From the IMG/VR virus record IMGVR_UViG_3300009968_000004: a DNA stretch of 36,835 nt; one strand, given 5' to 3'. A model generated the notes under the pieces. That model was not told the origin of the DNA, searched no databases, and saw nothing but the letters and a program-made list of their open reading frames with translations. This DNA is from a virus. Both the position numbers and the translations under genes were made by a program. This document shows positions 6,043-18,315 of this stretch, in pieces; the stretch's first letter is position 1, and every line of letters starts with the position of its first letter.

Positions 6043-6744
6043 ATGACAATTACACGCTCAATAACAAGCTCTATCACTCGTAGCATTACTAGCTCTATAA
6101 GTGGCGCTATAACTCGCTACTTCTCAACACTAGACCCAGTACTAAATAGTCACTATGTAATAGCTAACCCTATCGCGTTTACTGGGGATTTTGAGATTAG
6201 ACTAGATTTCGCGGGACCAAATCAAGCTAAAATACTTCTAGGTGATTCACATGCTACATCTTATTACTTTAATGTTGATGCAACCAACCTAACAGTTAGA
6301 ATTGCTGGCGTTCCAACAGAGTTTGCACACGCAGGTAGTAATCTTTTTGACGGAAAGCTACATACGATAACATACAGGTTAACAGGCACCAGCTTTGAAG
6401 TTTTAGTTGATACGTTATCTCTAGGTTCTCAGGTTGTAGTCCCGTATACAGGCGCAAACAACTTCTTATTAGGTAGCTCTAATAGCATAGCTACCTATCT
6501 AGATGGAATCCTAGCTAACCCTAAATTTACAGATAACTCAGGCACACCAGTAACCACAACATTCACACTAGGCAATGCACCAGGTGTTGATGCAGAATTA
6601 TCAGCGGAAGGTAATAACACAGCAACTCGCGTTAATGTTGCACTAGCTAACACTGAGAACTTCCAGCTATCTAACGATAAAACTCAATGGGATAACATAA
6701 GCCCAGACCCTAAACAATTACCTGTAATTATCGAGATAGCATGA
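6043..6744 (+). CDS. ConA/LamG-like domain protein with N-terminal ITxS repeats
   Basis: N-terminus ITRS-ITSS-ITRS-ITSS-ISGA-ITRY. The body (FEIRLDF...LLGDS...DGKLHTITY...FLLGSSN...YLDGILANPKF) resembles the LamG/concanavalin-like lectin fold. Confidence 0.55.
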   Translation: MTITRSITSSITRSITSSISGAITRYFSTLDPVLNSHYVIANPIAFTGDFEIRLDFAGPNQAKILLGDSHATSYYFNVDATNLTVRIAGVPTEFAHAGSNLFDGKLHTITYRLTGTSFEVLVDTLSLGSQVVVPYTGANNFLLGSSNSIATYLDGILANPKFTDNSGTPVTTTFTLGNAPGVDAELSAEGNNTATRVNVALANTENFQLSNDKTQWDNISPDPKQLPVIIEIA

Positions 6745-7076
6745 TGAAATACTTTTACGCTGTGATGTATACTGTAAATTCAGAGTTCTTAGTTAGTGGT
6801 GCCAAGTACGTTGAGGGCAAGGTTACGCTAAAGGGCTTAACTGAAGCTGAGATAGTCGAGTACAAGGGTGATGTTAACAGAATTGACCATAAAGGTTTTA
6901 ATCCTGATAACGACCCTGAGCAAGAAGGGCTATCGACTGAACAACTTAGTACTATGATGACAGGGCTAGCTAATCAAGAGCCTAACACTGTATTAGGTGT
7001 GCTTAGTATTCCACAAGGCAAATGGTTATATGCTAACCACGAAGCATTCAAGCCTAAGCAAGAACAATCAATTTAA
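6741..7076 (+). CDS. Hypothetical protein (111 aa)
   Basis: ATGA start/stop overlap with the upstream gene. No motif recognised. Confidence 0.6.
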   Translation: MMKYFYAVMYTVNSEFLVSGAKYVEGKVTLKGLTEAEIVEYKGDVNRIDHKGFNPDNDPEQEGLSTEQLSTMMTGLANQEPNTVLGVLSIPQGKWLYANHEAFKPKQEQSI

Positions 7077-7109
7077 TGTACAATGTAATTTTAATAAGAG
7101 GTTAAGAAG

Positions 7110-7337
7110 ATGACAACTTTAGTAAACAATCAAGTAACAAGGGTTGGACCTGGTACATATTCATTTGATGTTACCGGCGCTATGGAGTTACAAACAGATA
7201 AATCAGGAACCTTTAAAACTCTTAAAGATGGAACGTTCACAGGGGTTGATGATGATATAATAACACTGCCATCATGTAATATTAGAATAATCAATGCTGG
7301 CGCTAATGAGTTCATCTTCAATCTAGTTACATTATAA
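7110..7337 (+). CDS. Hypothetical protein (75 aa)
   Basis: GAGG SD upstream. No motif recognised. Confidence 0.55.
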   Translation: MTTLVNNQVTRVGPGTYSFDVTGAMELQTDKSGTFKTLKDGTFTGVDDDIITLPSCNIRIINAGANEFIFNLVTL

Positions 7338-7395
7338 TTTAAAATAAAGCGCTTTACAGTGTAAGGTGCTAGCTCATTTATGACGGGGTTATAAA

Positions 7396-7827
7396 ATGGC
7401 TAAGAAACTAACCTCAAAAGAAGAGTCTTTTGCACAGGCGTATGTATTTCATAAGAATGACTCTATTGAGGGTTATAGAAACTCTGAATACTCCCAAAGC
7501 TTAACCTCAGAACAAATGAGCGCACAAGCATACCGTTTACTTCATAAACCACATATAAACCATAGAATCAAAGAGCTTCAATTGAAAGCCTCTGTAATAG
7601 CTGAAAAAAAGTTCACAATAACCGTTGAGCAGCGCTTAACATGGTTGAAACAAATAACTGAAGCTGGTATGGCTGTTTACAATGATTCGACAGGTGCAGC
7701 TCGTAGAGAGTCTCTAACTGCTGCGCGTGGGGCAATAGAAACTATGAATACTATGCTAGGTGTTGATGAAGGTGCCGATAAAGTTAAGCCGGTTAAAATA
7801 TTCGTAGGTGTTAAAGATGCCTCTTGA
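7396..7827 (+). CDS. terS: Terminase small subunit (Terminase_2-like)
   Basis: LTSKEESFAQAYVFHKNDSIEGYRNSEYS matches the LTxKQxxF..Y....N...A...AGYS signature. It lies directly upstream of TerL. Confidence 0.75.
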   Translation: MAKKLTSKEESFAQAYVFHKNDSIEGYRNSEYSQSLTSEQMSAQAYRLLHKPHINHRIKELQLKASVIAEKKFTITVEQRLTWLKQITEAGMAVYNDSTGAARRESLTAARGAIETMNTMLGVDEGADKVKPVKIFVGVKDAS

Positions 7828-9163
7828 TTCTGAAGTTGGTGTAAGCCTCAATGTGCCTCAGTTTGAATTCTACTCAATGGATAAACAGTTTCGCGCATTC
7901 GTTGGAGGGTATCGCTCCGGTAAAACATACCTTGGTTGTGTTCGCCTTTGTATACTGGCATTAAGTTACCCGGGTATTAAATTAGGTTACTTTGCTCCTA
8001 CCTACCCGCAAATATCAGATATATTTTATGCAACAATAGAGGATGTAGCTGGTATGTTCGGCATGACTGCTGATGTAAAAGTGTCAATCAAGGAGGTAAC
8101 GCTTAGTTATTATGGTGATGTTCATGCTGTTGTTAAATGTAGATCAATGGAGCATCCGTCAAGAATAGTCGGCTTTGATATTAATCACGCTTTAATTGAT
8201 GAGATTGACACGCTTAAAAAAGAAAAGGCTGATGCAGCATGGAAAAAGATTATCGCCCGTTTATCATCGTCTGGCTTTGATGAGCAAAGATTATATGATG
8301 AAGAGGTTAATGCTGACTTAGTTATCGAGGCACTAGAGGAAAACACTGTAGACTTCACAACTACACCAGAGGGTTTTGGGTGGGTATATGATTTATTTGT
8401 CAAGCAGCTAAAAGGTGATGAAGATTTACAGCGTTATTACGGAATTGTTCACGCATCCACTAAACAGAATGCCAAGAACCTAGCAAAAGGTTATATTGAA
8501 TCACTTTACGCTACATACCCACCTAATTTAGTTGATGCTTACATTAACGGTAAGTTTACCAACCTTGTAAGTGGCACTATTTACACTTGCTATGATAGAA
8601 AGCTAAATAATACCAATCGAACTATAAAGAAAGACGACCATCTGCATATAGGTATGGATTTCAACGTTGGCAAAATGTCAGCTATCGTTCATGTTAAAGA
8701 TGAAGGCACTACCAGCGCAGTAGGTGAGCTAATGGGCTTACTCGATACTCCTGCTATGATTGATGCCATACAAGAAAGGTATCCTGACCATCGTGTTACA
8801 ATATACCCTGATGCAAGTGGGCAAAATAGAAAGTCAGCTAATGCCAGTGAAACAGATATCAGCCAATTAAAGGCCGCATTCAAGGTTAAGAATAAAAGCA
8901 AGAATCCATTTGTTAAAGATAGAATAGCAAGTGTTCAAGCTATGTTATGCAATGCGAATGGTGATAGGCGATACTTTATTAATGAAAATGAATGCCCTGA
9001 AACGTGCGATTCATTAGAGCAGCAGGTTTATAACAAAGCTGGCGAGCCTGACAAGTCACATGACAACGATCACCCTAACGATGCGTTAGGCTACTATATA
9101 CACAACAATTACCCTATAATACGTAAAGGGTTAACATCAAGCTTAGAAGTTACAGGATTTTAA
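7817..9163 (+). CDS. terL: Terminase large subunit
   Basis: Walker A VGGYRSGKTY, Walker B-like HALIDEID, C-terminal nuclease-sized domain. Open from GTG 7808; the ATG at 7817 has AGGTG 6 nt upstream. Confidence 0.88.
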   Translation: MPLDSEVGVSLNVPQFEFYSMDKQFRAFVGGYRSGKTYLGCVRLCILALSYPGIKLGYFAPTYPQISDIFYATIEDVAGMFGMTADVKVSIKEVTLSYYGDVHAVVKCRSMEHPSRIVGFDINHALIDEIDTLKKEKADAAWKKIIARLSSSGFDEQRLYDEEVNADLVIEALEENTVDFTTTPEGFGWVYDLFVKQLKGDEDLQRYYGIVHASTKQNAKNLAKGYIESLYATYPPNLVDAYINGKFTNLVSGTIYTCYDRKLNNTNRTIKKDDHLHIGMDFNVGKMSAIVHVKDEGTTSAVGELMGLLDTPAMIDAIQERYPDHRVTIYPDASGQNRKSANASETDISQLKAAFKVKNKSKNPFVKDRIASVQAMLCNANGDRRYFINENECPETCDSLEQQVYNKAGEPDKSHDNDHPNDALGYYIHNNYPIIRKGLTSSLEVTGF

Positions 9164-9164
9164 A

Positions 9165-10499
9165 ATGCCAATTAATACGAAATACAACGGATATGATGAG
9201 GCAATGAAAAAGGTTGCCAGAGTGCGCGACTTTGCCGAAGGCTCTGATGCTGTAAAGGGTGCTGGTGAAAAGTACTTACCTAAGCTTGGTGGTCAATCTA
9301 AGGATGATTACGATAGCTATAAAACTCGCGGCTATTTAATCCCTGCTGTGTCACCAACCGCTAAAGCGGTCAAAGGCTCAATTATGCGCCGACCTCCTGT
9401 ATTTAACCCTACTGGTGCAGAGTACTTGCTTGATAACTTCACCGGCACAGGTGTAAGTGTTAATGAGTTCGTTGGAGATATGATTACCGAGTTACTATAT
9501 GCCGGCGGTATTGGTTACTTAGTTGAATTCGATGAAATGCCATTTGCTAAACCATATACCCGCGAAAACATTATTAACTTCAGTAAAGATTATATTGTCC
9601 TATCGCAAAGCTATGTCGTGCAGAATGAGCAGGACAGATACGAGCAAGAAACTAAAACCGAATACCTAGAATTAACCTTTGATGAAGAGGGTAATTATAT
9701 ACAGCGTATTTGGCGTGAAACTGTAGGTGGTGGCAAGTTTGAGGTGCAAGGCGAGCCAACCATACCAACAAACCGTGGCGAACCATTAAAAGAGATCCCT
9801 TTTGTTTACTCTAGTGTTGGTAAAGTCGGCATTGTAAACACTGACCCAATTTTATTACACCTTACCAACGTGAATCATGACCAGTATTTATTATCTACTG
9901 ACCATCGACACGGATTGCACTGGACCGCATTGCCTACCATGTTTTTATTTGGTGAGATGGTTGATGATAAAGGCAAGCAAATACAAATTAAAGTTGGTCC
10001 TGGTAGTGCTAATCAAGTCGGTGATACTGATGCTCGAGCTGAATTACTAGAGTTTACCGGGCAAGGCTTAGGCTCAATCAAAACAGCGGTTGATGATGAT
10101 ATAAGCACTATGGCTAGTATTGGTGCTAAGATGATGACCAATGAGTCAGGCGGTGTTAAAGCGGCAGAGACAGCACGTATTGATGCAAGCAGCGAGACAG
10201 CTACATTGACGGTAATTGCTAACAGTGTTGATCAAACGATGCTTCAACTATTAACAATAATGAGTGAATGGGGCGGGTTTACGCAACCTGACTTTAAGAT
10301 CAATCGAGACTTCATTGATATTAAACTTGATCCACAAGCATTACTTGCACTGTTACAGACTTGGCAGTCGGGCGGTATGAGCTTAAACTCTTTCTTATAT
10401 CAATTAGAAAAGGGTGAGTTATTACCTCCTAAAGTAACGGCAGAAGATGAAGAGGACCGTATTGATACTGGTCCTGATTTTGACTTGGGTGGTGAATAA
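9165..10499 (+). CDS. Portal protein
   Basis: 444 aa, immediately after TerL and before the MuF-like head protein. Acidic C-terminus. Confidence 0.75.
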   Translation: MPINTKYNGYDEAMKKVARVRDFAEGSDAVKGAGEKYLPKLGGQSKDDYDSYKTRGYLIPAVSPTAKAVKGSIMRRPPVFNPTGAEYLLDNFTGTGVSVNEFVGDMITELLYAGGIGYLVEFDEMPFAKPYTRENIINFSKDYIVLSQSYVVQNEQDRYEQETKTEYLELTFDEEGNYIQRIWRETVGGGKFEVQGEPTIPTNRGEPLKEIPFVYSSVGKVGIVNTDPILLHLTNVNHDQYLLSTDHRHGLHWTALPTMFLFGEMVDDKGKQIQIKVGPGSANQVGDTDARAELLEFTGQGLGSIKTAVDDDISTMASIGAKMMTNESGGVKAAETARIDASSETATLTVIANSVDQTMLQLLTIMSEWGGFTQPDFKINRDFIDIKLDPQALLALLQTWQSGGMSLNSFLYQLEKGELLPPKVTAEDEEDRIDTGPDFDLGGE

Positions 10500-10666
10500 T
10501 GAAGATTTACCTACACTTTAAATGTGAGACAGGTGCGATTATAGAGCGTTATATTGATAGAGATACTAAGCAGACTAATTGCGAGTGTGGCAAGGTGGCA
10601 AAGAAAACTATCTCTACACCTCGTTATTTATCCAACAGTACCGGCAAGTCACCAGCGAGACATTAA
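10499..10666 (+). CDS. Small degenerate zinc-ribbon-like protein (55 aa, not in track)
   Basis: TAATG coupling at both ends (portal stop / its ATG; its stop / the next ATG). Translation MKIYLHFKCETGAIIERYIDRDTKQTNCECGKVAKKTISTPRYL... Confidence 0.55.
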   Translation: MKIYLHFKCETGAIIERYIDRDTKQTNCECGKVAKKTISTPRYLSNSTGKSPARH

Positions 10667-11721
10667 TGGCAATTAAAGACGATTTCAGCAGACACGCGCA
10701 TTTCATCGAGCAATACAAGAACGGCAACGTCAATAAGTTCGAGGCTTTCTTGCGCCGTGTTGCAAAGGGTTTGCGTGGTGAGCTATTAAAGACTAATACA
10801 GTCACCAGCCAATCACGCATTGAAGCAAAGCTTAAATTCGTTGAGGATTTAATTACAACTGAATTCACAGCTTACACTGATGAGATAGCCGAACAAATAG
10901 AATTGTTCGCAGTTAGCGAAGCTGGTTTTGTTGCTGAAACCGTCAAAAATGCTTCAGGTGTTAGCTTTACACTACCTAGTGACGCGCAATTAATAGCCGC
11001 CGTTAATGCTAGGCCATTTAATACTAAGCTGCTAAAAGATTATCTGAAAGACTTTACTAGCCAACAAGCAAAAGCCGTTAGTAATGCCGTTAGCATGGGT
11101 TTTTATGAAGGTAAAACAACACCTGAGATAGTACGCGATATTATCGGCACTAAAGCGCAGAACTTTAAGAATGGCACGCTGCACACTTCACGCACAAGCG
11201 CTGAAACAATGGTAAGAACTGCATTGAGTCATACCTCTTCAGTAGCACGTAATAAAACCTATGAGGATAATGATGATTTAATACCTTACTATGAGTGGGT
11301 ATCAACCCTAGACGGTCGCACATCACCAATATGCCGTAGTCGTGATGGAATGGTATGGAAGGTTAACAAGGGGCCATTGCCACCTGCACACCCGAATTGC
11401 CGAAGCACTACAGCTCCGTTATTCAAAGAAGATGTAAAAGTAACTAAAGGAAGTACGAAAACGGGTCCAGAAAAGCTAACTAAAATACCAGAGGGCGGCA
11501 CACGCGCAAGTATTGACGGGCAAGTAAGCGCTGATTTGACTTATAACGATTGGCTAAAGCGTCAAACTAAAGCTTTTCAGGTAGATGTATTAGGCAAGCA
11601 GAAAGCCGAGCTATTCCGTAAAGGTGGGTTAACGATGGATCAATTTGTTAATAATAAAGGTCAAGAGCTAACCCTTGACCAGTTACAAGCTAAATACCCT
11701 ACTGCATGGGGTAAGATTTAG
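10666..11721 (+). CDS. Head morphogenesis protein, Mu F / SPP1 gp7 family
   Basis: Signature WVSTLDGRTSPICRSRDGMVW...PPAHPNCRSTT. Preferred start is the ATG at 10666, coupled to the upstream stop; the track start at 10579 overlaps the small ORF. Confidence 0.85.
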   Translation: MAIKDDFSRHAHFIEQYKNGNVNKFEAFLRRVAKGLRGELLKTNTVTSQSRIEAKLKFVEDLITTEFTAYTDEIAEQIELFAVSEAGFVAETVKNASGVSFTLPSDAQLIAAVNARPFNTKLLKDYLKDFTSQQAKAVSNAVSMGFYEGKTTPEIVRDIIGTKAQNFKNGTLHTSRTSAETMVRTALSHTSSVARNKTYEDNDDLIPYYEWVSTLDGRTSPICRSRDGMVWKVNKGPLPPAHPNCRSTTAPLFKEDVKVTKGSTKTGPEKLTKIPEGGTRASIDGQVSADLTYNDWLKRQTKAFQVDVLGKQKAELFRKGGLTMDQFVNNKGQELTLDQLQAKYPTAWGKI

Positions 11722-11890
11722 TTAAACCTAAATACTCAAACTCATCCTTGGTGTTGTAATCGCTAATTACCTTTACGCCATTACATTCGCCATAAATCTC
11801 ATTCTGACCACAGCAGACATAATCAACTAGGAATACCTCGCCTGTAGCGTTATTTCTGTAGTAGCCTAGCTTTGGAATTAATACACTCAT
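11699..11890 (-). CDS. Island gene 6, hypothetical (63 aa)
   Basis: GAGGTGG SD and a TGATGA stop/start overlap with island gene 5. Its 3' end overlaps the MuF gene 3' end convergently by 23 nt. Confidence 0.55.
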   Translation of the reverse strand: MSVLIPKLGYYRNNATGEVFLVDYVCCGQNEIYGECNGVKVISDYNTKDEFEYLGLTKSYPMQ

Positions 11891-12084
11891 CACCCACCTC
11901 CAAATTTCACATAGTAATTAACAATAGCAAGATAGCAATCACCCACCTCGTTACACCTAGGGTATATATCATGCAATTCGACAAAATAACCAGCAACATC
12001 TAACGCTGACTGAATGTTTACTAATAGGTTAGAATCCCATGCTATCGGGACCCTAAAATAAAAATGCTCAGAAGGTAGGCTCAT
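11890..12084 (-). CDS. Island gene 5, hypothetical (64 aa)
   Basis: GGAGGT SD 5 nt upstream of the ATG at 12084 (alternative GTG at 12087). No motif recognised. Confidence 0.55.
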   Translation of the reverse strand: MSLPSEHFYFRVPIAWDSNLLVNIQSALDVAGYFVELHDIYPRCNEVGDCYLAIVNYYVKFGGG

Positions 12085-12143
12085 CACTTACCTCCAAATA
12101 TGCGCTTAAAATCTTCTTCTAACTCTTTTGGTAGTTCAGTCAT
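12084..12143 (-). CDS. Island gene 4, 19-aa mini-ORF (MTELPKELEEDFKRIFGGK)
   Basis: GAGGAG SD 7 nt upstream. Its stop overlaps the next ATG (TGATGA). The C-terminus and junction DNA mirror those of island gene 5. Confidence 0.35.
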   Translation of the reverse strand: MTELPKELEEDFKRIFGGK

Positions 12144-12145
12144 CT

Positions 12146-12490
12146 TTACTCTCCTCTATCAATGAACCTATTAACACCTAAGTCGATATCATCAACATTG
12201 ATGCCTTCACCGAATGACTTGGTCTTGCCCCCTTCATATTGAACACAGCCAAAATCACTCATGACATACAGTGTTGCTTTGTAATCACTGCCATCTTGAA
12301 CGAATGCTTTATGATCCTTGTACTTATCCATCAACTCTCTATTGCAATAATTTTCAGACTCAACATCATCATTCCAATCAGTACAGTCGTAAAACATACG
12401 GACCTTTGTGCAAGGCTTTAAACTCCCGTTAAGCTTGTTGTCATCATCATCACCAGTACCCCAGTATTTACATGATTCACAGCTATCCAT
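12146..12490 (-). CDS. Island gene 3, Cys-rich hypothetical protein (114 aa)
   Basis: N-terminus CESCKYWG...C...C...C. The start overlaps the stop of island gene 2 by 8 nt. Confidence 0.6.
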   Translation of the reverse strand: MDSCESCKYWGTGDDDDNKLNGSLKPCTKVRMFYDCTDWNDDVESENYCNRELMDKYKDHKAFVQDGSDYKATLYVMSDFGCVQYEGGKTKSFGEGINVDDIDLGVNRFIDRGE

Positions 12491-12653
12491 CGTGCTTACC
12501 CCTTAAATTATCAACCTCGTTTTTAATTAATTCATTCTGTTTATTATCTTTATTAGCGTGCTCACGATACCACCGCAACGAATAACCTATATGCTCGCAG
12601 AACTCTAAAAGCGTATAGCCTTTATTTCTAATCTTTCTTGTTAGCTTGTTCAT
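12483..12653 (-). CDS. Island gene 2, small HTH-like DNA-binding protein (56 aa)
   Basis: MNKLTRKIRNKGYTLLEFCEHIGYSLRWYREH reads as helix-turn-helix. The ATG at 12653 is coupled (TAATG) to the stop of gene 1; the track start at 12689 is less likely. Confidence 0.55.
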   Translation of the reverse strand: MNKLTRKIRNKGYTLLEFCEHIGYSLRWYREHANKDNKQNELIKNEVDNLRGKHDG

Positions 12654-12928
12654 TACCACCCCATTTGAATTAATAGGCTCAAGTCGCAACCAACAGACTC
12701 AAGCGTGAATGTTCGTACAGTTAAACTCATGTCCTTTGTCTTATATAAGATGTCGATAATAGACAAGAACTTACCATCAACTAAAAAACCCTCTTCTTCC
12801 ATTAATACAAACCAACCTTCATCCCTACACACTGACATGTTTCTAGGCAGACCTAAAGGCGAGCATGTTGCATGGCAAGCCTCGCTTAAACGTAAATCCT
12901 TTTCTAAATCTAAAATCTTATCAATCAT
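12653..12928 (-). CDS. Island gene 1, hypothetical (91 aa)
   Basis: AAGGGG SD about 7 nt upstream. First gene behind the leftward promoters. Confidence 0.6.
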   Translation of the reverse strand: MIDKILDLEKDLRLSEACHATCSPLGLPRNMSVCRDEGWFVLMEEEGFLVDGKFLSIIDILYKTKDMSLTVRTFTLESVGCDLSLLIQMGW

Positions 12929-12952
12929 TATAAACCCCTTTAATTATCATCT

Positions 12953-12988
12953 TTTGCATTATACTAGTTCACTATTTGCATTATATCA
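12953..12988 (-). promoter_or_regulatory. Tandem leftward promoters within an 11-bp perfect direct repeat
   Basis: TTTGCATTATA at 12953..12963 and 12975..12985. Each reads TATAAT on the minus strand, and the second is TGaTATAAT (extended -10). A third partial copy, GCATTAT, is at 12993..12999. Confidence 0.5.
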
Positions 12989-13016
12989 AGTGGCATTATT
13001 AAATTAATTATCACCA

Positions 13017-13025
13017 TGCTATAAT
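13017..13025 (+). promoter_or_regulatory. Candidate rightward late promoter (extended -10 TGcTATAAT)
   Basis: Perfect TGnTATAAT about 55 nt upstream of the scaffold gene. No good -35 element. Confidence 0.45.
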
Positions 13026-13078
13026 CTATTTGACAATAACGGTTACAGCGTAGCCACCAATAATCCAGAGGATTAACA

Positions 13079-13777
13079 ATGTTACATTTCAAATTAAGCT
13101 CAGAAGACTTCGATAAACTAAACGATGTAGAAAAAACTTTATACGCTCAAGCTGGTGATGGCTATCAGTTACAGGTAGATGGAGCTGTAGATAAAGCCAA
13201 GCTAAACGAATTCAGAGCCACTAACACTGACTTGATGAAACAACAAGAGCAGTTTAAGGGTGTTAATTTAGAAAAGTATCGTGAGCTTGAAGCGCAAGAA
13301 CTTAAATTGCGCAACAAAGAATTAATTGACAAAGGTGAGTTTGATACATTACTTGCAGAAAATACAGCCAGCTTACATGCTGACTATAAAGGTCAAATTT
13401 CTAATCTAAACGATCAACTCAATAGTAATACAGGCCAATATAATAACCTTGTATCGAAGTATGAAATCGAAGGCGCAGCAACTAAAGCTTTTGCCACTCA
13501 TAAAATCAACCCTGATGCTTATGACGGTGTAATGGCTCAAATCAAATCTAAGTTTAGTATTGATAACGGCTTAGTGGTCGCTAAAGATGGTGATAGTATT
13601 CTTGCTGGTGCTGATGGTAACTTAACTGTTAGCGAGTTCGTAGCAAGTCAACCTGAAATATTTAAGATTCAAAGTAACGGCGGCAAAGCTACCGGCAGTG
13701 AAAGTAAAGGTGGTATGCAACAAGGTACGTCTAGCCAAGATAAAATCAAGTCTGGTTTAGCGGCTAGAATGGCTTAG
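13079..13777 (+). CDS. Scaffolding protein
   Basis: Charged, helical, coiled-coil-like sequence of 232 aa, directly upstream of the major capsid gene. GAGG SD. Confidence 0.65.
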   Translation: MLHFKLSSEDFDKLNDVEKTLYAQAGDGYQLQVDGAVDKAKLNEFRATNTDLMKQQEQFKGVNLEKYRELEAQELKLRNKELIDKGEFDTLLAENTASLHADYKGQISNLNDQLNSNTGQYNNLVSKYEIEGAATKAFATHKINPDAYDGVMAQIKSKFSIDNGLVVAKDGDSILAGADGNLTVSEFVASQPEIFKIQSNGGKATGSESKGGMQQGTSSQDKIKSGLAARMA

Positions 13778-17541: not shown

Positions 17542-18201
17542 TTAGGTGGATCTACTCCAGCCTTGGTGGTGTTCGCTTTCTCCGCTACTAACTCTATACA
17601 TATCCCTTATGTTTAGGTTGTTTTTCCTGCTAAACTCAGCAAGATTATAAACTTCAACAGAATCACCATTAGGGCCGATAAACTTATAGTGTTTAGCCGC
17701 CGCCTTTATTGAATTATCTGTCTTGCTTACAAATAGGCAGGTGCTTGGTGAATACACCCTGTTACCATCTATTTTTATATCTTTATCTAAGTGTTGGCCG
17801 TTAATGTAGTTTTCATCAAACCAACAAGCAAAGTTTTGAAAGTTGTGCCACTCATCGCATACGGTGCAGTCGATGTATGAAGGGCGTCTTTCGTGTAGCT
17901 CTATCGAGTAGCACCTCGTTATCATTGCGGACCAAATACTATACGCCTTGGTTTTAATGCCGTTAACTGATGGCTTATAGTTACCCTCGCCAATAAATCC
18001 GACACCGCAAGATGACGGAATGGTTAAGTCTTTTACGCCACCCTTCCTTATGTTATCAGATGTTGCGATTGTGGAGTATTTGGTCTTAATAAACTGAACA
18101 GTAACATTGTTTTTTTTAGCGTAATCGACAATACGTAAATCACCATAGTTGTTAGTTTTGTGTACAGTTCCCGCGATCATGTCTTTTGGTGTGGATTTCA
18201 T
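17542..18201 (-). CDS. Free-standing homing-endonuclease-like / DNA-binding protein
   Basis: Opposite strand inside the neck-tail module. The patterns YGDLRIVDY...VTVQF, GVGFIGEGNY, YSIWSAMITRCY...CTVCDEWHNFQNFACWF and C-terminal F.GPNG....V.NL.EF...NL......V..G...HHQGW occur in phage selfish-gene families. No HNH or GIY-YIG catalytic motif was identified. Confidence 0.5.
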   Translation of the reverse strand: MKSTPKDMIAGTVHKTNNYGDLRIVDYAKKNNVTVQFIKTKYSTIATSDNIRKGGVKDLTIPSSCGVGFIGEGNYKPSVNGIKTKAYSIWSAMITRCYSIELHERRPSYIDCTVCDEWHNFQNFACWFDENYINGQHLDKDIKIDGNRVYSPSTCLFVSKTDNSIKAAAKHYKFIGPNGDSVEVYNLAEFSRKNNLNIRDMYRVSSGESEHHQGWSRST

Positions 18202-18306: not shown

Positions 18307-18315
18307 TGTTAGAAT
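18307..18315 (+). promoter_or_regulatory. Candidate restart promoter for the tail genes (TGtTAGAAT)
   Basis: Extended -10-like element about 35 nt upstream of the gene at 18348. Confidence 0.3.

Follow-up and report, generated by a model that had tools for sequence, protein, structure and literature searches.

The DNA analysed here, a stretch of 36,835 nucleotides of the IMG/VR virus record IMGVR_UViG_3300009968_000004 (referred to as the window), carries an island of 1.3 kb with six small minus-strand genes (o1 to o6) between the plus-strand genes for a MuF-like head morphogenesis protein and the head scaffolding protein. This island belongs to a widespread family of cassettes, which is defined by the gene o2, encoding a small putative regulator, together with a bidirectional promoter, and in which the other genes (the cargo) are hypervariable and exchangeable. 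We consider the cassette architecture and the insertion very probable. On balance, if with modest confidence, the island is taken to be a copy of an accessory transcription unit that is portable and self-regulated and moves among marine (Alteromonadales-type) siphophages. A sequence-only reading of the same DNA had pointed to the six genes and their antisense position, while the distribution of the family over varied sites, the outward-directed promoter and the co-variation of promoter boxes with the recognition helix of o2 had been missed.

On the plus strand, the genes for TerL, portal and MuF are located on one side of the island and those for the scaffold and the major capsid protein (MCP, phrog_212) on the other. 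The flanking genes and the inserted segment are:
10666 to 11721, plus strand: MuF-like head morphogenesis gene on the left flank, listed as an open reading frame (ORF) from TTG 10579 (PF04233, 1.7e-12; phrog_241, 1e-124)
13079 to 13777, plus strand: head scaffolding gene on the right flank (phrog_206, 8e-21)
11733 to 13036, approximate, minus strand: inserted segment according to the junction alignment with contig L003, with fuzzy edges and a short TAA microhomology

No DNA-level match to the region was obtained by megablast against 50,697 phage records, and the best isolate matches to the window MuF share 35-37% identity. Closer relatives are found in IMG/VR. In contig L003, the MuF and MCP proteins of which are 77% and 75% identical to those of the window, the spacing between MuF and scaffold is just 44 bp, and the window scaffold protein is 60% identical to the product of the gene located directly 3' of MuF. 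In a further relative, L069 (MuF 63%, portal 60% and TerL 66% identity), the scaffold gene follows immediately after MuF. Since MuF and scaffold are joined in both L003 and L069, the segment from about 11733 to 13036 is, as judged from these alignments, an insertion in the window that is absent at the junction of its nearest relatives. The interruption of the virion operon against its direction of transcription, as described in the sequence-only reading, thus holds, and the synteny comparison proposed there gave the absence of the island in the closest relatives. Because the inserted segment starts at about 11733, the C-terminus of o6 is encoded in ancestral MuF DNA: its final 11 or so codons run beyond the boundary given by the L003 junction into the MuF 3' end. 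In agreement with this, the homologs of o6 share sequence up to the residues YLGL, after which their tails vary.

The island comprises the following genes:
12928 to 12653, minus strand: o1, 91 aa, acidic (isoelectric point, pI, 4.56), first cargo gene
12653 to 12483, minus strand: o2, 56 aa from ATG, basic (pI 9.46), XRE-like four-helix helix-turn-helix (HTH) protein, putative autorepressor
12490 to 12146, minus strand: o3, 114 aa, acidic (pI 4.39), with a Cys4 domain of about 85 aa
12143 to 12084, minus strand: o4, 19 aa (MTELPKELEEDFKRIFGGK), with a good Shine-Dalgarno sequence
12084 to 11890, minus strand: o5, 64 aa, acidic (pI 4.63), cargo
11890 to 11699, minus strand: o6, 63 aa, acidic (pI 4.55), cargo

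These are the six coupled ORFs originally reported. At four of their junctions the genes overlap, by 1, 8, 1 and 1 nt, and at the fifth they are separated by 2 nt; a Shine-Dalgarno-like sequence is located upstream of each of them. The convergent overlap of o6 with the 3' end of MuF, also reported before, is 23 nt long (11699-11721). An exhaustive HMMER search with the five larger proteins against 1.84 billion representative proteins yielded 290 matches at E<=1e-3. The best homologs share 63-84% identity, all of them non-identical proteins. As homologs were found for o1, o2, o3, o5 and o6, these are real genes, and a reading of the island as spurious ORFs was rejected. A reading as a compositional island was rejected as well, since the GC content (0.35-0.40) corresponds to that of the genome (approximately 0.39) and the strand skew alone differs, the GC skew turning negative across 11500-13000. 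The pI of o2 (9.5) stands apart from those of o1, o3, o5 and o6 (4.4-4.6), with a median of 5.55 in the window. The six concatenated proteins gave no match in a word-indexed database of 5.8 billion proteins, and an Rfam scan of the window gave no match either.

Scans for the o2 family led to 33 loci in IMG/VR, 47 metagenome loci, two contigs of metagenome-assembled genomes (MAGs) and one cultured phage. About 34 cassettes from IMG/VR were tabulated; further cassettes from JGI/Tara metagenomes stand outside this table. After clustering of the 172 proteins of 34 cassettes, o2 was the sole shared family, and 76 of the 172 proteins were singletons. The blocks encoding o2 homologs are antisense and comprise 1-9 small genes, with 0-2 genes before and 1-6 genes after o2 in the 34 cassettes; o2 is sometimes the sole gene or has unrelated genes as neighbours (L064, L052). 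Where a locus shows both flanks, the block is nearly always antisense to the structural genes on either side. The cassettes are found at these sites:
between TerL and portal: L053, L080-82 and L084
between portal and MuF: L069
between MuF and scaffold: the window, L047, L056, L061 and L079
after MCP: PANV2 (gp7-gp12) and L141
among head-tail genes: L058, L059 and L066

The window, L053 and L069 are related phages carrying the cassette at three different junctions, and two cassette copies each are present in L066 and L073. The cultured carrier is PANV2 (MW805362, L133; in full Paraglaciecola Antarctic JLT virus 2), in which a six-gene cassette (6126-7861, gp12-gp7) is located antisense after the major capsid gene. 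The protein gp9 is 52% identical to o2. Both the boxed promoter and an outward-directed TGGTATAAT are present in this cassette, and each of its six genes carries the annotation 'hypothetical'. The cassette is not mentioned in the PANV2 paper (PMC9239159), and no description of the o2 family was found. PANV2 grows lytically and lyses its host in culture (PMC9239159). Since, in addition, the o2 family hardly occurs in 185,579 genome assemblies (two MAG contigs only), the carrier phages seem to be mainly lytic.

Apart from hairpins in occasional cases, a search for a conserved signature at the 3' end or the target site revealed only a common overlap of convergent stop codons by 4 nt (YTAR). The stop codon of the last cassette gene and that of the convergent structural gene overlap by exactly 4 nt in about 13 of 30 cassettes, among them L048, L053, L054, L056, L058, L061, L062, L068, L076, L077 and L080. 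This is probably the usual compact convergent arrangement, which nevertheless leaves the cassette ends closely packed.

Besides o2, the second constant part of the family is the promoter. The following elements were assigned at the two ends of the island:
12990 to 12951, minus strand: P_cas, inward sigma-70-type promoter (-35 TTGATA at 12989 to 12984, 17-nt spacer, -10 TAGTAT at 12966 to 12961)
12985 to 12975, minus strand: box 1, TATAATGCAAA, putative o2 operator in the spacer, adjoining the -35
12963 to 12953, minus strand: box 2, TATAATGCAAA, putative o2 operator over the -10 and the start site
12951 to 12943, minus strand: box 3, degenerate
13017 to 13025, plus strand: P_out, extended -10 TGCTATAAT, located within the inserted segment, 53 nt upstream of the scaffold start
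11680 to 11659, minus strand: terminator-like hairpin (stem of 9 bp) with UUUAUUAUUA after it, antisense to the MuF 3' end in which it is located

Boxes 1 and 2 form an exact 11-nt direct repeat, and the window contains no further copy of this exact pair. TATAAT promoters of its own had been ascribed to the island from the sequence; the own promoter stands, while the TATAAT hexamers belong to the 11-nt repeat and TTGATA/TAGTAT is the better fit. The statement that no terminator was present does not hold, as the hairpin is located 19 nt past the o6 stop and is followed by a U-run, though its folding energy of about -13 kcal/mol (z -0.8) does not stand out statistically. The counterpart hairpin in L003 is weaker and lacks the U-run.

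A bidirectional promoter module of about 110 bp, located upstream of the first cassette gene, always accompanies o2 and is common to 40 distinct sequences. The consensus of these sequences is cTTG.aATaaTGCaAA..TA...TAaTGCaAAtGATGcaaAataaAGGGGTTTATAatg, with an upstream ATTnTAnCAC that reads GTGnTAnAAT on the other strand. The module contains a -35 TTGnnA, a box (A/G)TGCAAA in the spacer, a -10 TAnnnT and, 22 nt beyond the first box, a second one, which is often followed by a third after another 9-10 nt. The leader AAAGGGGTTTATAATG is conserved even where the first gene differs. The outward GTGnTAnAAT is found about 25 nt beyond the -35 on the structural strand, where it points at the next structural gene; at least 16 loci, and the majority of the 40 aligned modules, have it at a fixed distance from P_cas. 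At the MuF-scaffold junction of L003, the P_out motif is absent. Of the boxes, box 1 alone forms a partial palindrome with the -35, and this in some loci only; otherwise the boxes are direct repeats.

The structure of o2 was modelled with AlphaFold2 (AF2) from a 53-sequence alignment of database proteins. The model (predicted local distance difference test, pLDDT, 89.7) has four helices (residues 3-10, 15-22, 26-33 and 38-49), which upholds the description of the 56-aa protein as HTH-like. In Foldseek (TMq 0.55-0.63, E 0.6-10), the top eleven fold matches, and most matches overall, are lambda-repressor-like; they include EnrR, a lambda-repressor-like protein, Aca1 of JBD30, C.Esp1396I/C.BclI, HipB, ImmR and the 434 repressor. 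No Pfam or NCBIfam match was obtained for o2, and a profile of the family gave chance matches only at E<=10 against the PDB, which holds at least Aca1. The family comprises 210 clusters in the 5.8-billion-protein database, all of which are 'hypothetical' and none annotated. No paralogs of o2 are encoded in the window.

Helix 3 and the boxes were compared in 48 non-identical pairs of o2 protein and promoter, in which three motifs go with three boxes:
helix-3 motif LRW: box TGCAA in 27 of 27
helix-3 motif LRT: box TGCCA in 11 of 14
helix-3 motif LSS: box TGTCA in 3 of 3

The three LRT exceptions differ at residues that follow the helix-3 motif. This pairing, the strongest line of evidence for o2 as the regulator of the module, makes it likely that o2 binds the boxes. 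As the boxes are located in the spacer and over the -10 and the start site, repression is predicted, and o2 is rather likely to be a repressor.

The cargo proteins o1, o3, o5 and o6 gave no match in Pfam, PHROGs, PADLOC or NCBIfam. Homologs of o1 share 40-53% identity in the family alignment and up to 58% by phmmer; the alignment varied too much to be used in scanning for loci. One of them, P0012, is the product of the first gene of another o2 cassette, located after MCP in L141/L142. Most of the 290 matches belong to the large family of o3, in which the cysteines C4, C7, C27 and C82 are invariant and probably form a metal site. The family, with the motif AFVQDGSDYxAxLxTxxDFGC, is widespread in phage contigs (L008-L045) and uncharacterised, and an o3 homolog is found among the early genes of the relative L008. 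For the AF2 model of o3 (pLDDT 81.4), no fold match was found in the PDB and a single one in BFVD, an uncharacterised phage protein. By sequence, o3 gave no match in the PDB, none by tblastn against phages and no record in an exact-sequence look-up. The homologs of o5 are P0003 (77% identity), P0018 and P0149; o5 homologs are also encoded in the o2 cassettes L116 and L119, the o2 genes of which diverge. For o6, the homologs P0004 (69%), P0021, P0037, P0040 and P0070 were found, and no member of the family was found in IMG/VR. A combined o1/o5/o6 profile found one protein only in the 5.8-billion-protein database.

A 20-nt junction sequence, ATTTGGAGGTnnGTGATGAG, is repeated on the minus strand at o4/o5 (12099 to 12080) and o5/o6 (11905 to 11886). 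At both junctions, the upstream ORF ends with FGG(K/G)-stop and the downstream ORF begins with MS. The short o4 may be a relay ORF, or the 3' remnant of a lost gene that was kept with a linker containing the ribosome-binding site.

The closest homologs of o3 and o5 (L135 1-1572 and L134 1-760) are encoded in operons with the same promoter topology and a different second gene. Its 59-aa product (MKxMNSSRFRSFMKTELDLIE...) has a weak match to Phd/YefM (E 0.03). The L135 promoter contains two CGTACAAGT direct repeats placed as the o2 boxes are, in the spacer by the -35 and just after the -10. A boxed promoter with a different regulator suggests that the cassette design is broader and that its regulators can be exchanged, as far as promoter and gene order can indicate. 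The cargo of related cassettes includes YopX and families of unknown function, among them a common phrog_3483-like protein, and small membrane peptides are encoded in some cassettes, such as a 32-aa and a 100-aa transmembrane protein in L141. The commonest large cargo directly downstream of o2 is the phrog_3483 family (200-360 aa, N-terminus MKTVIDAVNEF..., motifs DIDWSKAPEGATH and FTQAMADNGELPSVGMEC), the gene of which is located right after o2 in L050, L051, L053, L084, L093, L119, L121, L122 and L125.

According to the model favoured here, host sigma-70 RNA polymerase would fire the near-consensus P_cas once the DNA enters the cell, and o1-o6 would be transcribed antisense to the late head genes. 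The regulator o2 would build up and shut off its own operon by binding to the boxes, which are located in the spacer and across the -10 and start site. P_out, we infer, would re-initiate transcription of the downstream structural genes, and for this reason the antisense insertion is proposed not to be polar. The variable cargo (o1, o3, o5, o6 and perhaps o4) would most likely act on the host early in infection, in counter-defence or takeover. An anti-defence role of the cargo is a tentative proposal, drawn from the analogy with acr-aca loci (PMC9410906, PMC13551039) and from the small acidic proteins, and a counter-defence activity of the island as such would be pure inference. It is rather doubtful that o2 with its boxed promoter marks an undescribed family of self-repressed early-gene shuttles for counter-defence genes in marine siphophages.

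Several results weigh against the model or parts of it. No known defence, anti-defence or toxin family was matched by the cargo in libraries that included no Acr/anti-defence library. The o2 gene is not the last one of its operon, unlike typical aca genes. The E-values of its fold matches are non-significant, because the protein has only 56 residues. The box and helix classes are probably clades, so that few independent switches stand behind the co-variation, and direct repeats are unusual for XRE dimers. Copies of o2 in L115, L067, L070, L073a and L109 are co-oriented with their neighbours. Neither a transposase or recombinase nor a conserved 3' end that would explain mobility was found. The extended -10 was tested as a general phage promoter and is not enriched in the window (14 found, 12.5 expected).

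The sequence-only reading had seen a signature of the acr-aca type in the island. What remains of it is the anchor regulator with variable small genes, an arrangement which supports an Aca-like regulatory logic as far as the sequences go; no match to an Acr, Aca, defence or anti-defence family was obtained in the libraries used, the boxes are direct repeats and o2 is the second of six genes. Published Aca proteins act as repressors of the promoters from which they are expressed, via sites within the core promoter (PMC9410906, PMC13551039). Shared with acr-aca loci (e.g. Aca1 of Pseudomonas phage JBD30) are the small HTH gene inside the operon, the putative sites within a strong core promoter, the coupling of a conserved regulator to highly variable small cargo genes and the insertion in the head-gene region of a siphophage; moreover, Aca1 is among the best fold matches of o2. 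In contrast, o2 matches no Aca of the PDB and no Pfam HTH family by sequence, its boxes are direct repeats (22, then 9-10 nt apart) rather than the inverted repeats predicted for Aca1-10, and it is the first or second gene and not the last. In acr-aca operons, aca is located downstream of acr; in the island, o2 is preceded by one gene and followed by four. The island cassette also differs in being antisense to its neighbours and in its outward promoter, and no known Acr or anti-defence gene was found in it.

The C proteins C.Esp1396I and C.BclI, which are among the best fold matches as well, have in common with o2 that a small XRE-type regulator is located at the front of the unit, with repeated boxes at its own promoter. 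The o2 cassettes differ from them by the lack of restriction-modification genes and by the variable cargo, and C-boxes are palindromic. In T4-type phages, small ORFans are shuffled together with strong sigma-70-like early promoter motifs (PMC2839356, PMC4122927), a feature also seen here. The cassettes in question (PeSLs) are composites of promoter and stem-loop that flank ORFs, occur in many copies per genome within hyperplastic regions and have no regulator gene (PMC2839356, PMC4122927). The o2 cassettes, on the other hand, are present in 1-2 copies per genome, with a single module in the window, have no conserved 3' stem-loop, carry a regulator gene and are located inside the structural operon.

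Two further observations concern the surroundings of the island. Homologs of MuF align only from residue 28-31 or so of the listed ORF, so that ATG 10666 is probably the start codon rather than TTG 10579. This ATG overlaps the stop codon of a 55-aa ORF in the interval between portal and MuF (10499-10666, plus strand), which has two CxxC-like pairs (Cys4) and is kept in L069 (54 aa). Between two tail genes, the virion module of the window contains another antisense insertion, a 219-aa HNH/AP2-type homing-endonuclease-like gene (17542-18201, minus strand; phrog_2081, E 5e-63). An extended -10, TGTTAGAAT, is found beyond it at 18307-18315 (plus strand), facing the next tail gene. The phrog_2081/953 endonuclease family is also encoded directly after o2 in the cassettes L085, L109 and L116.

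Several other explanations of the island were weighed. It may be a generic moron or accessory cassette with the same regulation by o2, the cargo of which serves superinfection exclusion, host physiology, lysis or timing. We regard this as possible, if doubtful. Like the morons of lambdoid and other phages, the island is an independent unit in a late operon, equipped with a predicted promoter and a plausible terminator of its own, and it separates two genes that are direct neighbours in relatives lacking it, as the moron definition has it (PMC3594210). The membrane peptides of L141, YopX and the families of unknown function in some cassettes would fit as well. Classical morons are expressed from prophages and benefit the lysogen. 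The phages with o2 cassettes, in contrast, appear to be lytic and not prophages, given the near-absence of the family from genome assemblies and the growth of PANV2, and this counts against a moron of the classical, lysogen-benefiting kind; no integrase was seen in the window, though no profile search for integrase was made. A dedicated regulator, a conserved bidirectional promoter and many genes per unit also set the o2 cassette apart from morons. A selfish homing element, in which endonucleases cut cassette-free alleles of co-infecting relatives while the small genes hitch-hike and o2 controls the nuclease, is improbable. The HNH/AP2-type genes after o2 in three cassettes, the antisense endonuclease gene of the window with its outward extended -10 and the C-protein-like folds among the o2 matches would agree with it, but none of o1-o6 matches a nuclease family, most cassettes are devoid of an endonuclease gene, and the endonuclease of the window has neither an o2 gene nor clear boxes.

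Small overlapping genes, an HTH autoregulator, the HipB fold match and the weakly Phd/YefM-like second gene of the related operon type might indicate a module of the toxin-antitoxin or abortive-infection kind, in which o2 would be the HTH antitoxin and a gene next to it the toxin. This is very improbable, as no gene family consistently adjoins o2, which at times stands alone or beside unrelated genes, and no toxin family was matched. For head-assembly accessory factors of the morphogenesis module, only the position between MuF and scaffold speaks. The genes are missing there in the nearest relatives, they are located on the opposite strand under their own sigma-70-type promoter, their content is hypervariable and the cassette is found at many other junctions; this reading has a negligible chance and was rejected.

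If the model of a portable, self-regulated transcription unit is right, o2 would represent a new regulator family with a readable recognition code of three helix-3 types and three box types. It would also provide an anchor gene for accessory, possibly anti-defence, genes in poorly annotated uncultured marine phages, and the outward promoter carried by a mobile cassette would repair the operon it interrupts. Regulator code, anchor and outward promoter are directly testable with PANV2 on Paraglaciecola IceBac 372. Should the cassettes indeed be shuttles for counter-defence genes, o2 would be a new Aca-like anchor, guilt by association over the 210+ o2 clusters might lead to hundreds of new anti-defence proteins, including the Cys4 family of o3, and with its built-in outward promoter, a mobile element would have a new means of entering an essential operon in antisense direction without polar damage. 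Even with a cargo unrelated to defence, the cassettes would still be a clean case of modular gene shuffling within the most conserved part of the phage genome.

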